A program made the position numbers and the translations under genes. A stretch of 64,000 nucleotides of DNA from Patescibacteria group bacterium (GTDB lineage: Bacteria; Patescibacteriota; Patescibacteriia; Buchananbacterales; UBA6539): NCBI GenBank assembly GCA_028688055.1, contig JAQTYZ010000004.1:33021-97020 (forward strand), written 5' to 3'. Below are positions 30,063 to 54,560 of this stretch, piece after piece. Each line of letters opens with the position of its first letter. The stretch's first letter is position 1. The notes under the pieces are model-generated. The model saw only the letters and a list, made by a program, of their open reading frames with translations, was not told where the DNA came from and ran no database searches.

Positions 30063-30136
30063 GCCCTCGTAGCTCAACTGGATAGAGCAGGTCCGTCCTA
30101 AGGACAAGGTTGTAGGTTCAACTCCTGCCGAGGGCA
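30063..30136 (+). tRNA. tRNA-Arg (anticodon CCT).
   Basis: Hand-folded cloverleaf: acceptor GCCCTCG/CGAGGGC, D-arm GCTC..GAGC, anticodon loop GTCCTAA, T-arm GTAGG TTCAACT CCTGC. No encoded CCA. Confidence 0.8.
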
Positions 30137-30140
30137 TTTT

Positions 30141-30216
30141 GGGCCTGTAGCTCAGTTGGTAGAGCGCTACATTCGCATTGTAGAGGTCAGGGGTTCGACT
30201 CCCCTCAGGTCCACCA
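30141..30216 (+). tRNA. tRNA-Ala (anticodon CGC).
   Basis: Acceptor GGGCCTG with G3:U70, anticodon loop TTCGCAT, T-loop TTCGACT. CCA is encoded. Confidence 0.85.
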
Positions 30217-30223
30217 GTTAATT

Positions 30224-30250
30224 AGCGTCGTTTTGCGACGCTTTTTTTTA
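30224..30250 (+). terminator. Rho-independent terminator after the Arg-Ala tRNA pair.
   Basis: AGCGTCG ttttg CGACGCT followed by TTTTTTTT. Confidence 0.7.
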
Positions 30251-30344
30251 TTTAATTTTAGAGAAATTTTAAAATAAACCAAAAAAATTATAAACATATT
30301 TCAGCTAGCTTGACAAATTTAGCTAAATGTTATAGTATTCATAC

Positions 30345-30507
30345 TGCTCTTTTGTTTTAATTGATCACTCCGTGGGCTACCTCTTTGCCCACACAACCCA
30401 TATACGGGTCAAGCTCGCGGTGATGCCCCAAGCATCTGCGAGCCGGGAAGCTCATCCTACTTTACTTGTTGGCGCAAGAGGGTCACGGTGAGCTTCCCTC
30501 TTTTTTC
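30345..30507 (+). ncRNA. Candidate small structured RNA with its own promoter and terminator. Class unknown.
   Basis: TTGACA (30310-30315), 17-nt spacer, TAGTAT. The transcribed region is GC-rich with hairpins (GTGGGC..GCCCAC, GCTCGC..GCGAGC). It ends in a 10-bp GGGAAGCTCA/TGAGCTTCCC stem followed by TCTTTTTT. Confidence 0.3.
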
Positions 30508-30569
30508 ACTTTGACAGTATTTTTTTTTCATTTTATAATAAGTCGGTAATTTATTTATCTTGCTTTTTT

Positions 30570-30645
30570 GGGCCTGTAGCTCAGCTGGTAGAGCGCTTCC
30601 ATGGCATGGAAGAGGCCAGGAGTCCGAGTCTCCTCAGGTCCACCA
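30570..30645 (+). tRNA. tRNA-Ala (anticodon GGC).
   Basis: Acceptor GGGCCTG with G3:U70, anticodon loop ATGGCAT, CCA encoded. The T-loop TCCGAGT is atypical. Confidence 0.8.
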
Positions 30646-48154: not shown

Positions 48155-48412
48155 ATGACATTTACTGATCATAAAAAAATATTTGAAGTTACGGTAATTA
48201 CTAACGCCAAACAATCAAAAATTGTTGAAGAGGCTGATCATTTTCTAAAGGTTAAGCTAACCGCAATTCCCGAAAAGGGGAAAGCCAATACTGAACTGAT
48301 AAAAATTTTAGCTAAAAAATTTGACGTTAGTAAATCGCAAATTGAGATTGTTAAGGGTTTGACAACGAAAAAAAAATTGGTTAGGATTGAATTTATCAAA
48401 AGTCAAAAATAA
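48155..48412 (+). CDS. DUF167 (YggU/UPF0235) family protein.
   Basis: 85 aa with a KVKLTAIPEKGKANTELIKILAKKF pattern. Confidence 0.65.
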   Translation: MTFTDHKKIFEVTVITNAKQSKIVEEADHFLKVKLTAIPEKGKANTELIKILAKKFDVSKSQIEIVKGLTTKKKLVRIEFIKSQK

Positions 48413-48492
48413 AAAATACCGCCTAGCGGTAATAGTAAAATAAAAATAAATCGCTAAATTAAGCGATTTTTTGGTTTTTTACAGTAATACTC

Positions 48493-48521
48493 TTGACAAC
48501 AATCAAATGTTATGCTATAGT
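48493..48521 (+). promoter_or_regulatory. Sigma70-like promoter driving the 48563-48810 element.
   Basis: TTGACA, 17-nt spacer, TATAGT. A terminator for the upstream gene lies just before it (48451-48475). Confidence 0.5.
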
Positions 48522-48562
48522 GATTAGTTATCGTAATTTGACAAAGTAATTTAAATTTCCGT

Positions 48563-48810
48563 CCAAAAGTCTGCAGACAGCCCAAAACGGGTCAGTATCC
48601 TCCCATGTGCTTTCCGTGCCCATAGCGGAGGGGCTAGCAGTGCCTGTAGTACTTGGTTGGCAAGAAAAAATTTGTACCTTTCAATACAAACCTCCTTTCA
48701 CTTGCCATCCAAGCTCTGCAGGCACGACAAGCACGAAATTTGTTTCTTGGAAAATCCGGCTCCGGCTCGATTTTTCCCAGAAAAAAATTTCTTGTCTGCA
48801 GACTTTTGTA
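48563..48810 (+). ncRNA. Candidate structured RNA, or a MITE-like element with 17-22 bp terminal inverted repeats. Class unknown.
   Basis: The ends CCAAAAGTCTGCAGACAG and CTTGTCTGCAGACTTTTG pair as a 17-bp closing helix. Internal hairpins include CCTCC..GGAGG, GGCAAG..CTTGCC, CCAAG..CTTGG and GGAAAAT..ATTTTCC. No credible ORF is present. Confidence 0.3.
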
Positions 48811-48867
48811 CGGGAGCAATTCCGATACTTACTTTGAACCGTTAACGACTATTGTCGTTAGCGGTTT

Positions 48868-50742
48868 TTAGTTAATCGTTGGTTCAATTATCGCCTCCGG
48901 CACTACCGTTTCAGTTGACGAAGCGTTTGGATCAACACCAATTTTCCAGACTTCCGGCCACGCCACATAATGACTGTGAAAATTCTGTTCTTTCTTGTCG
49001 CCGTTGGGATAAATAACCGTGTAGGTAAAATCAGTGTCAGCACCATTATGAGCGTGCTCAACAATTTTTTTCTCACCCGGCTTTAAATCGGTCGTCTCAA
49101 TGTAGTGCGGCTCACCCGGTCGAGTGACGTTATAAATTTTTGGCGGGTTGGGATCAAGAATAACTTGCCGGCCATCTTTAGTACCGTAAAATTCAAAAAT
49201 TAAATTATCACCTTCAAGCTTGGTCACAAATAATATATCGTGGCCGGTATCATTTAAAAATTTCATATCCGGGGCGGGATCATAAATAGTTGCGTCCATT
49301 CCGGCCGGTTCATAATACACCACGCGATAAGAATGATTCCGTCTTTCCGTAATTGGCAAACCGGCATTGAGCGCGGCCCGAAAGGTTGTGGTACCAATTT
49401 GGCACAAGCCACCACCGTATTCCGGCAAAGTTCGGTCGCCTTTAATAACCAGCTCTTGCAAATAACCATGATTGCCATCAATTGGTCCCAGCGCTTTTAA
49501 CAATGAAAAATCTTCGCCTGGTTTAATCAACACGCCGTTCAACGAACCGGCACCGACGGCAATATTTACTCGTCGATTTTTTGGACTGCCTTTAAAATTT
49601 GACGTCCCGCGACCGATCAATTCAACGATACCTAAATTATTTAAATCCCCATTAGCGACTTTGGCGGTAACGACTTCAACACTCAATGGAATATCATCAC
49701 TAATACCGGCTACGACCTGATTATTTATTTTCTCATAACTCTTATCAATATTAAGTGATTTACCATCCTGGATTGACTGAAAACTAGTCACGCGACCGTC
49801 ACTAATTTCAAACTTCGCGTCCTTAACTTCCACGTCAAGCTGCTCTTTAATCGGCTGCAAAAATTCAGCCACCAGCGCTTTGTTTAACCCAATAACAATT
49901 TCATTATTTCGCTGCTGAAATTCCAACCAACTCTGTAATTGCTTAGCAGTAATGGTCCAGCTATCCTGACCAGCGGTCAATTTCAACGACTCAATTTTTA
50001 AAATAGCCTCTAAGCCGTTTAACGCTGAGCCCAAATTTTGTTTTTTGATTTGGGGCTCCTGGAAGCTTAAAGTCATTGGAATCGGCACAAAATCCAAGTT
50101 ATTTAAATTCTTTTCCAAAGTATCAATGGCCGATTGATAATCAAAAACTTTTCCTGATTGCTCACCAATTATTTCCGGTGCCTGGTTATTAATAACCAGC
50201 CGGGCATTTAAGGGCGGCTGCTCCTGATCAAAAAAATTAGATTTTAACGTTGCTAACAATTCCGTTTTATCCAACACAAATACCGGGCTGGTGTGATGGC
50301 CAAACATAACCGTGCTCGCTTGTGACAAAAGATCGTTAATTAAATTACCACCGCGGCCATTGCGATAAGCAACATTTACCGTTTGCGACCAATCAAAATA
50401 TAAAACCGGTTTGGCTAAATCCGGGTCGGTCGCCGAAATATTAATCAGCTCAATATTAATATTTTTGCCCGCTGAACTAAAAATTAATCCCTTTGATTGA
50501 AGCTTGGCTTCAATATTTTTTAGACTCTCAAGTGCTTGATTTTTGGTCAGACCACCGACATCCAGATAACCAATTTTGGTGTTAGGATAAAACTTCGACG
50601 CGCAAGTAACTTCAAACGTAATAACCAGACCAATAATGACAACGAAGAGCATAAAAAAAACAGCGGCCACGATTAACCACCATTTATTATGATGCGACTT
50701 TTCAAAAATATCCTCAGACTTTTTATTATCTTGCTTGCTCAT
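48868..50742 (-). CDS. VanW-family protein with an N-terminal TM helix and peptidoglycan-binding-like region.
   Basis: 624 aa. YGGGLCQIGTTTFRAALNAGLPITERRNHSYRV VanW core. Confidence 0.75.
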   Translation of the reverse strand: MSKQDNKKSEDIFEKSHHNKWWLIVAAVFFMLFVVIIGLVITFEVTCASKFYPNTKIGYLDVGGLTKNQALESLKNIEAKLQSKGLIFSSAGKNINIELINISATDPDLAKPVLYFDWSQTVNVAYRNGRGGNLINDLLSQASTVMFGHHTSPVFVLDKTELLATLKSNFFDQEQPPLNARLVINNQAPEIIGEQSGKVFDYQSAIDTLEKNLNNLDFVPIPMTLSFQEPQIKKQNLGSALNGLEAILKIESLKLTAGQDSWTITAKQLQSWLEFQQRNNEIVIGLNKALVAEFLQPIKEQLDVEVKDAKFEISDGRVTSFQSIQDGKSLNIDKSYEKINNQVVAGISDDIPLSVEVVTAKVANGDLNNLGIVELIGRGTSNFKGSPKNRRVNIAVGAGSLNGVLIKPGEDFSLLKALGPIDGNHGYLQELVIKGDRTLPEYGGGLCQIGTTTFRAALNAGLPITERRNHSYRVVYYEPAGMDATIYDPAPDMKFLNDTGHDILFVTKLEGDNLIFEFYGTKDGRQVILDPNPPKIYNVTRPGEPHYIETTDLKPGEKKIVEHAHNGADTDFTYTVIYPNGDKKEQNFHSHYVAWPEVWKIGVDPNASSTETVVPEAIIEPTIN

Positions 50743-50986
50743 CTTTATTTTTCAAAACCTGATTTAAAATTGCTTTTGCCAACTTATTCCGCTCAGTTTC
50801 GCTCGCTTCATTTAAAATCACTAACTTCACTTCAGCACCAAGTTCCGAACCGGCTGGCAGAAAATCGGTCGGCCATTTAACAGTCTGCCCATCGGCCAAA
50901 GTAATCGTTGCCACACTCTTATCCAACGCTTCAATTTTACCGACTAAAAAATTTTGATTCTGGGCAATAACCGATTCAGGTGACAT
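50726..50986 (-). CDS. DUF3006-like small protein.
   Basis: 86 aa. VGKIEALDKSVATITLADGQTVKWPTDFLPAGSELGAEVKLVI pattern. Confidence 0.45.
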   Translation of the reverse strand: MSPESVIAQNQNFLVGKIEALDKSVATITLADGQTVKWPTDFLPAGSELGAEVKLVILNEASETERNKLAKAILNQVLKNKDEQAR

Positions 50987-50998
50987 AAAACAACAAAA

Positions 50999-51406
50999 TT
51001 AACTGTTAACTTTAATGGAAATATTTTGACGTCGTTCAGCTTTTGGTAAGGTAACGGTCAAAATACCATCTTTTAAAACTGCCGAAATCTTATCAGGTTT
51101 AACTTCAACTGGCAAGATGATTGAACGGGAAAAATTGCCCCAATAGCATTCCTGATAAAAATAATCAACCGCTTCGTTCACTTCTTCTCGTGAGCGCTTG
51201 CCCCTGATCGTGAGCATATCATTATTTAACGAAACCTCCAGCTCCGCCGGATCAACGCCGGCCATCGTCGAACAAACATAAATATTTTTTTGGTCTTGGT
51301 AAACATCCAGCATCAACTGACCTTCCGACTCATCGTCTAGCCAAGCTTCGGATTGCCCCAATTCGCCAAAAGAAATTTTTAAATTGTTTTTATTTTGCTC
51401 ACTCAT
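50999..51406 (-). CDS. Hsp20/alpha-crystallin small heat-shock protein.
   Basis: 135 aa. GILTVTLPKAERRQ C-terminal motif and an alpha-crystallin domain pattern. Confidence 0.85.
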   Translation of the reverse strand: MSEQNKNNLKISFGELGQSEAWLDDESEGQLMLDVYQDQKNIYVCSTMAGVDPAELEVSLNNDMLTIRGKRSREEVNEAVDYFYQECYWGNFSRSIILPVEVKPDKISAVLKDGILTVTLPKAERRQNISIKVNS

Positions 51407-54485: not shown

Positions 54486-54560
54486 GGGGCTATCGTCTAG
54501 TGGTTAGGACATCAGGCTTTCATCCTGATAACCGGGGTTCAATTCCCCGTGGCCCTACCA
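54486..54560 (+). tRNA. tRNA-Glu (anticodon TTC).
   Basis: TCGTCTAGTGGTTAGGAC D-arm typical of Glu, anticodon loop CTTTCAT, T-arm CGGGG TTCAATT CCCCG, CCA encoded. The acceptor stem has G1-U72 and U6-G67 wobble pairs. Confidence 0.8.

Follow-up and report, generated by a model that had tools for sequence, protein, structure and literature searches.

A candidate gene for a conserved structured non-coding RNA convergent with the VanW operon in Patescibacteria

Introduction

Does the 455-nucleotide (nt) non-coding gap between a DUF167/YggU gene and a convergent VanW-family gene in a Patescibacteria group bacterium hold an RNA gene or a mobile element? The gap lies in a 64,000-nt stretch of contig JAQTYZ010000004.1 (assembly GCA_028688055.1), hereafter the window, between the DUF167/YggU gene at 48155-48412 on the plus strand and the VanW-family gene at 48868-50742 on the minus strand. 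A sequence-only reading of the gap had described a segment of about 250 nt, bounded by terminal inverted repeats behind a consensus promoter, and had left it as either a non-coding RNA (ncRNA) or a miniature inverted-repeat transposable element (MITE). The first of these stood, since four lines of evidence strongly favor an RNA (synteny, a conserved same-strand promoter, compensatory base changes, and surplus G.U pairs), while the second did not, the element being single-copy, confined to one locus, and free of target-site duplications. With a probability of roughly 0.85 to 0.9, the element is a stand-alone gene for a conserved structured ncRNA. A structured ncRNA gene of Buchananbacteria-type Patescibacteria is very probably also the best explanation of the data as a whole.

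Conservation and synteny of the element

The element occurs once in the 64-kb window, as judged by self-BLAST and a pattern search, and once on each contig examined. Trigger-factor relatives place the window beside 'Candidatus Buchananbacteria' metagenome-assembled genomes (MAGs) at 54-57% identity, and the proteins of the window were found on one other assembly only. With nhmmer, the element was recovered at the same position in two Buchananbacteria MAG loci (E = 1.7e-31). A scan of metagenome contigs with the invariant 19-mer CTGCAGGCACGACAAGCAC returned 36 loci, consisting of 26 complete elements, one element truncated by the contig end (L019), one reduced variant (L016), and 8 chance matches in coding sequence. 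Loci fetched through their VanW genes (L048/49, L052, L053, and L226; 46-74% VanW identity) also carried the full element. More than 30 homologs were identified, all of them at a single syntenic site convergent with the VanW gene of an Hsp20/DUF3006/VanW operon. The neighbor on the promoter side varies between DUF167, a 253-amino-acid (aa) inositol phosphatase, Laminin_G, Polysacc_synt, and clpP, while the linkage to VanW stays, although its apparent strength is biased by the most distant loci having been fetched through VanW.

This distribution bears on the MITE reading, in which a transposase would bind the 21-bp terminal inverted repeats and the hairpins between them would be incidental. 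Like a MITE, the element is a segment of ~250 bp bounded by inverted repeats, and these were confirmed at 21 nt and 95% complementarity; the second 17-bp arm of the sequence-only reading starts at 48791, 2 nt before the stated 48793. The arms at 48559-48579 and 48793-48813 are 213 nt apart, their core GTCTGCAGAC is palindromic, and the left-arm 18-mer occurs in the 64 kb at the two arms only (0.02 occurrences expected by chance). In some relatives the right-hand arm is tandemly repeated two or three times, but these extra arms belong to a second RNA with its own closing helix. Unlike MITEs, the element is single-copy and syntenic, and its flanks (...AATTTAAAT / TTTCCGTCC... and ...ACGGGAG / CAATTCCG...) share no direct repeat. 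No homologs were found in mobile or viral collections: BLASTN against plasmids and phages gave no match, and two 15-mer core scans of IMG/VR viral contigs gave more than 160 matches, none of which had a downstream UUGYCUG in an RNA-like context and all of which were attributed to chance. Homologs keep the promoter at a fixed distance, base changes in one arm are compensated in the other, and only one strand tolerates G.U pairs. Despite the inverted termini, the arms behave as an RNA helix, and a MITE is hardly tenable.

Secondary structure and covariation

Folding of the plus strand at 48528-48872 yielded a minimum free energy (MFE) of -144.9 kcal/mol against -80.0 +/- 4.6 kcal/mol for shuffled sequences (z = -14.1), while the reverse strand reached z = -9.8. 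The stable internal hairpins that had been noticed in the bare sequence were recovered as four to five hairpins, and the internal inverted repeats include I1, with arms of 37 nt, and I3, with arms of 23 nt, besides smaller ones. The "terminal inverted repeats" form P1, the 21-26-bp helix that closes the RNA, one strand each. Its 5' strand UUUCCGUCCAAAAGUCUGCAGACA occupies 48556-48579 and its 3' strand UGUCUGCAGACUUUUGUACGGGAG 48793-48816, both on the plus strand, as are all helices below, and both were identified by inverted repeat, fold, and alignment. The primary transcript is predicted to be ~340 nt long with a folded core of ~260 nt.

P1 encloses a multi-branch fold comprising P2, P3, a long arm P4 that displays ACCUCCUUUC, the invariant junction GGCACGACAAGCACG, and P5. 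P2 is a mini-hairpin, CCC-AAAAC-GGG, at 48581-48591, supported by fold and alignment. P3 (48598-48632) consists of a UCCUCC/GGAGGG stem and a nearly invariant loop, GUGCUUuccGUGCC, at 48607-48620. P4 (48640-48725) was identified by covariation, with base GUGCCUGUAG/CUGCAGGCAC and middle GGUUGGCAAG/CUUGCCAUCC, and bears the apical hairpin P4a at 48671-48690. P5 (48735-48791), likewise identified by covariation, has the tip GGC-UCCG-GCU with a UNCG-type loop at 48761-48764.

The comparative set comprised 24 distinct sequences including the window. In the alignment fitted to the structure model, 95.6% of cells were paired and 20 pairs changed on both sides, which none of 500 shuffles reached, and slid partners gave only 35-49% pairing. 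Independently of that alignment, MAFFT/RNAalifold called 23 compensated pairs, and RNAalifold and the curated structure agree on P1, P2, P3, P4, P4a, and P5. The covariation in orthologous loci that had been proposed as a check on the RNA was therefore found. At least the outer 12 bp of P1 covary freely (column 4/388: UA 6, CG 6, GC 3, UG 2; column 11/381: GC 12, AU 8), while its inner part CUGCAGAC/GUCUGCAG is invariant across the alignment. P2 has a compensated form, CCU/AGG, in L021 (read from the alignment), and 4 of the 6 pairs of P3 changed on both sides. The P3 loop is conserved in every large-form, that is full-size, homolog, with AUGCAU instead of GUGCUU in L053. Of the 25 pairs of P4, 95% of cells are paired, with many exchanges between G.U and A-U or G-C, and homologs carry an extra variable hairpin of 0-125 nt after position 48699, at the P4 apex right after ACCUCCUUUC. 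P5 (helices 6 and 7) contributes 10 pairs changed on both sides, and its loop reads UUCG, UCCG, UCAG, and similar across homologs.

At paired positions, G.U/U.G combinations numbered 115 versus 28 A.C/C.A, and the strand of the RNA is therefore fixed as plus. With P1 cut back to its inner 10 bp, a covariance model built on the core scored 195-258 bits on the plus strand and 37-60 bits on the reverse strand.

Another possibility is a small protein, encoded by a 76-aa open reading frame (ORF) that starts with GTG (48607-48837) or by another stop-free frame. In most homologs, two plus-strand frames run for ~78 codons without a stop, and a GGAGG stands 8 nt upstream of the GUG. However, the spacings between conserved blocks (32-40, 60-70, and 47-162 nt) are not constant modulo 3, the frame relation shifts between homologs, insertions of 20-125 nt carry stop codons, no start codon is conserved, and the compensatory substitutions fall within helices. 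The earlier dismissal of the overlapping ORFs as junk agrees with this, as they are not conserved as reading frames, and a coding function is scarcely credible. In the window, two of the three plus-strand frames are nearly stop-free at 48569-48803, probably as a by-product of the conserved sequence blocks.

Four mutually complementary CUGCAG/CUGUAG strands (48570-48579, 48640-48650, 48715-48725, and 48792-48802) build P1 and the base of P4. The two helices could swap partners, like a migrating four-way junction, and the resulting pairs are the counterpart of the helix that closes the reduced forms described below. For the window this strand-swapped pairing was rejected, as it costs 29 kcal/mol relative to the MFE, and the nested fold is favored by covariation in the adjoining parts of the helices.

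Transcription unit and flanking genes

The promoter of the sequence-only reading, TTGACA-17-TATAGT at 48493-48521, was confirmed as a sigma-70-type site, TTGACA-17-(TG)cTATAGT, on the plus strand; it matches 11 of 12 consensus positions, has a TG extension, and is the top-scoring site in the region. Of 23 homologous loci, 22 have a plus-strand TTGACA-17-TAnnnT promoter, which precedes the structured core by 34-60 nt. A 'GUUAU' motif recurs directly 3' of the -10 box in most homologs, as seen when upstream sequences were compared. The A/U-rich 5' leader spans 48528-48555 (plus strand), its start being placed ~7 nt after the -10 box. At the other end, the hairpin and T-run that had been located near 48841-48870 were found at 48837-48870, where an intrinsic plus-strand terminator consists of a 13-bp hairpin (48837-48849/48854-48866) and TTTTT. 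It was recognized from inverted-repeat and fold evidence, while a simple terminator scan did not list the hairpin at 48837-48866. Comparable terminators sit 3' of the RNA in most homologs. Transcription would run on the plus strand from the consensus promoter to the terminator abutting the convergent VanW gene; its start, its 3' end, and any processing we infer.

Upstream of the RNA promoter, after the DUF167 gene, two back-to-back terminator-like hairpins occur within 48412-48482, one at 48417-48431 called on the minus strand only and one at 48448-48469 called on both strands. The order of terminator, then promoter is kept in nearly all homologs, and the loci share a layout of upstream-gene terminator, promoter, A/U-rich leader, folded core, and usually terminator. 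As far as sequence comparison reaches, the element has the general features of a structured ncRNA gene, having a promoter and a terminator to itself, stronger conservation than its flanks, covarying helices, and no conserved ORF.

The downstream gene was correctly placed on the opposite strand by the sequence-only reading, which had concluded that the element is not a 5' leader. It is a VanW-family gene, and a leader or riboswitch, which would lie upstream of the gene it regulates and on the same strand, was ruled out by the orientation of this next gene and by the terminator directly after the RNA in most loci. A same-strand ORF follows the RNA only in L022, L029, and L042. In these three loci the ORF is an insertion that separates the RNA from VanW; it has a strong GGAGG ribosome-binding site (e.g., AAAGGAGGUGAGCCAAGUG in L022), and apparently no terminator stands between it and the RNA.

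The VanW operon covers 48868-51406 of the window on the minus strand and encodes Hsp20, a DUF3006-like protein of ~86 aa, and a VanW protein of ~620 aa (PG_binding_4 + VanW). Its gene order, Hsp20/DUF3006/VanW, is conserved across all related loci of the candidate phyla radiation (CPR) examined. The RNA might act on this operon in cis, as an antisense or 3'-overlap regulator whose 3'-end pairing controls the stability of the VanW mRNA, or as a terminator or insulator. The convergent linkage persists while the other flank changes, the U-run of the window's terminator overlaps the VanW stop codon, and in L055 the outer 3' strand of P1 and the U-run lie inside the last VanW codons. Yet only a few nucleotides overlap in the window, 180-340 nt of other RNA separate the element from VanW in several relatives, and a conserved, complex, pseudoknotted fold would be needless for a simple 3' overlap. 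In addition, the VanW operons of L056 and L225 lack such an RNA, and fetching by VanW biases the linkage. A cis-acting role at the VanW 3' end is therefore unlikely.

Reduced forms and a second RNA

A reduced RNA was found at the same position, on the strand opposite VanW, in L016, which is GC-richer and lies downstream of clpP, and in L055 and L057, where the VanW proteins are 43-45% identical to that of the window. The reduced form has its own TTGACA promoter, a closing stem of 10-22 bp, CACGACAAGCAYG, a P5-like hairpin, UUG, the 3' strand, and often a U-run. L054 carries a degenerate, A/U-rich version. As distant CPR lineages keep only P1, CACGACAAGCAYG, P5, and UUG, the junction is regarded as the ancestral conserved site. 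From this comparison, the ancestral unit is taken to be a closing stem, a 13-nt asymmetric junction, and a hairpin, and the 5' domain (P2, P3, P4, and the decamer ACCUCCUUUC, which resembles an anti-Shine-Dalgarno (anti-SD) sequence) to be an addition in the Buchananbacteria-type lineage. In the large form, what was once the closing helix appears to be divided between P1 and the P4 base.

The shape of the reduced form recalls 6S and Ms1 RNA, in that both have a long closing stem, an internal bubble, a terminal stem, and a strong housekeeping-type promoter and are single-copy. In a 6S-/Ms1-like RNA, the stem, the bubble (CACGACAAGCAYG opposite UU), and P5 would mimic an open promoter, and the P3 loop would resemble the product RNA templated by the bubble. 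The sequence of the P3 loop, GUGCUUnUUGUGCC, is almost the bubble's complement, and the literature searched pairs no 6S RNA with CPR. The element differs, however, in having no covariance-model match (the Rfam 6S model gave none at E ≤ 10 for the window element and at E ≤ 5 for the reduced forms), in a highly asymmetric bubble (13 nt versus 2-3 nt), and in three extra helices within the "bubble" of the large form. 6S RNA was rejected as an identity on the Rfam result, and a 6S-like function is quite improbable.

A second structured RNA of ~160-190 nt lies between the main RNA and VanW in a subset of relatives, with no terminator between the two RNAs (L003 9204-9362; L015 693-862; L012 6112-6300, minus strand; L020 1096-1286, minus strand; L046 566-740). 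Three U.G pairs are invariant in its closing helix, which is homologous to P1 (5' AAUCUGnnCAAAAAUUUGUAGAUCC / 3' GGGGUCUGCAGAUUnUUGnnCAGAU). The interior of this second RNA differs from that of the main RNA and matches no Rfam family, and the window is without it. L003/L015 and L040 hold an additional cassette, which is shorter and has the same 3' arm at its end. By eye, an apparent short GIY-YIG-type ORF (MYYVYILKSQKDGKLYIGYTNNLK...) was noticed at ~8346-8480 of L003, in an enlarged intergenic region upstream of the RNA, and a GTCATTCCCGCGAAAGCGGGAATCC hairpin resembling a dispersed repetitive extragenic palindromic (REP)/MITE-type repeat at ~4600-4625 of L054 (minus strand), between the promoter and the reduced RNA.

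Comparison with known RNA families

Rfam 15 was run on the window, 14 full-size loci, and 4 reduced-form loci at gathering score and at permissive E-values. At gathering score the window yielded four tRNAs only, and nothing meaningful fell on the element at E ≤ 10 (48380-48950). Permissive runs on the window and the 18 related loci returned only chance miRNA and leader matches. The Rfam and ARAGORN matches of the window are confined to a tRNA cluster at 30063-30645 (Arg-CCU, Ala-CGC, and Ala-GGC) and tRNA-Glu at 54486-54560.

The candidates suggested by the size of the element (RNase P, tmRNA, 6S, ROOL, and GOLLD) all failed to match in Rfam and ARAGORN, and the earlier failure to find P4, tag-peptide, or T-loop signatures was repeated by ARAGORN and by the Rfam RNase P models, in which the P4 pseudoknot and the CR-I/CR-V sequences are encoded. 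RNase P RNA (A/B) was rejected with no Rfam match in the window, in 14 homologous loci, or at E ≤ 10 on 48380-48950, and the RNase P motifs GGAAAGUCC and ACAGAA were absent from the element by eye. Transfer-messenger RNA (tmRNA) was rejected since ARAGORN listed four tRNAs and zero tmRNA in the window, Rfam gave no match, and P1 is a 21-26-bp duplex and not a 7-bp acceptor stem. Signal recognition particle RNA (4.5S or large) gave no Rfam match, and the tip of P5 is UNCG-type, not GNRA. ROOL, GOLLD, OLE, raiA, and HEARO were rejected with no Rfam match in the window or the 18 related loci. No description of this RNA was found in the literature searched on CPR ncRNAs, 6S RNA in CPR, and anti-SD mimics.

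In general design, the element resembles large orphan bacterial ncRNAs known from comparative genomics, namely the raiA motif RNA, ROOL, GOLLD, OLE, and HEARO, with which it shares its own transcription unit, a length within 200-400 nt, many covarying helices, invariant junction nucleotides, a candidate pseudoknot, variable peripheral insertions, and a function that cannot be read from genomic context. It differs from them in its lack of an Rfam match, its CPR/Patescibacteria hosts, its near-perfect closing duplex of 21-26 bp, and its four CUGCAG-containing strands. The family is absent from Rfam 15 and, as judged from these comparisons, would be a new family of orphan structured bacterial ncRNA.

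Junction core and proposed mechanism

The junction core GGCACGACAAGCACG, at 48721-48735 on the plus strand between P4 and P5, is present in every large form. Across the RNA family, no other element is conserved as widely as the CACGACAAGCAYG within this core, which also occurs in the reduced forms L016, L055, and L057 and as a degenerate version in L054. The junction is independently conserved in loci that were fetched through VanW, and it persists in lineages whose adjacent VanW proteins share only 43-46% identity with that of the window.

The P3 loop GUGCUUnUUGUGCC is complementary to the junction at 12 of 14 positions plus wobbles, and RNAalifold prefers that pairing. Its GUGCUU/AAGCAC half is compatible with P4 in the form of a pseudoknot, in which 99% of cells can pair and the first pair is G-C in 22 sequences, G.U in L052, and A-U in L053. 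Pairing of the large-form P3 loop (GUGCUU..UGUGCC) with the junction, as a pseudoknot or an internal mask, is thus suggested with moderate support. The junction and pseudoknot could alternatively be the catalytic or ligand-binding core of a ribozyme or of the RNA scaffold of a ribonucleoprotein (RNP). Such RNAs typically have a junction of several helices, unpaired nucleotides that do not vary, long-range pseudoknots like the candidate one here, and a site of peripheral expansion, but the element resembles no known ribozyme class, its reduced forms lack the pseudoknot partner, and the VanW operon supplies the sole consistently associated protein genes. A ribozyme or RNP scaffold is quite improbable.

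The second conserved unpaired site, the decamer ACCUCCUUUC, lies at 48690-48699 on the plus strand between P4a and the 3' strand of P4 and is nearly invariant in large-form homologs. We take it to be identical to the 3' tail of bacterial 16S rRNA (...CACCUCCUUUCU). With the C/U-rich anti-SD motifs of base-pairing small RNAs (sRNAs) of Firmicutes, such as RsaE/RoxS and RNAIII, it shares a CCUCC motif complementary to ribosome-binding sites. Those sRNAs are, however, shorter and carry the motif in simple hairpin loops, while the decamer sits in a large conserved fold and is not found in the reduced forms L055 and L057 of its own family.

For the structured ncRNA favored here, a mechanism can be outlined tentatively. 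The RNA would act in trans as a binding or sequestering RNA through its invariant junction, where a protein or RNA partner would dock, and the P3 loop would organize or mask the junction. In Buchananbacteria, the exposed ACCUCCUUUC might add pairing with GGAGG-type ribosome-binding sites or serve as a decoy for a factor that recognizes the 16S 3' end. The long P1 duplex would probably be a processing or stability element and, in reduced forms with a U-run, probably a terminator. Trans action, docking at the junction, and 16S-tail-like pairing or decoy activity are considered possible, though doubtful.

Several points weigh against this reading and its mechanism. The Buchananbacteria-type label of the window genome is inferred from its closest relatives (L003, L004, and named VanW homologs). 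The alignment behind the pair counts was the one fitted to the structure model, and the junction block belonged to the search pattern for 20 sequences, so that its invariance there is partly an artefact. For the pseudoknot, 40 of 500 shuffles match the score and one pair only is compensated, as both sides hardly vary. Complements of the junction core numbered 7 sites in the 64-kb window (≤3 mismatches) versus 9 expected, and RNAduplex pairings of the core with the hsp20/DUF3006/vanW start regions of 12 loci were weak and inconsistent (-1 to -12 kcal/mol). Finally, the absence of the decamer from L055 and L057 means that anti-SD pairing cannot be the ancestral function.

The most far-reaching version of the mechanism is a CPR-specific class of pseudoknotted RNA. 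An ancient core would dock a partner, and Buchananbacteria would have gained a domain of ~150 nt with a copy of the 16S 3' tail. Such an RNA would act on translation initiation or as a decoy for a factor or nuclease that recognizes the anti-SD tail, with the P3 loop as a built-in switch masking the core. It is put forward as a speculation that is rather unlikely to hold in full.

Implications

RNAs of this size and complexity without a known family are uncommon, and some earlier ones proved to be ribozymes or RNP scaffolds. This one is unusual in its design, with a presumed 16S-tail-like decamer and four CUGCAG strands that are interchangeable. VanW-domain proteins are reported as peptidoglycan 3-3 transpeptidases (PMC10980060). 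The persistent linkage of the RNA to the VanW operon suggests where a phenotype may be sought.

CPR/Patescibacteria have tiny genomes and are almost uncultured, and to our knowledge next to no regulatory RNA has been described from them. A strongly promoted, single-copy RNA of ~260 nt with covarying helices would therefore provide a concrete and testable entry point into RNA-based regulation in CPR.

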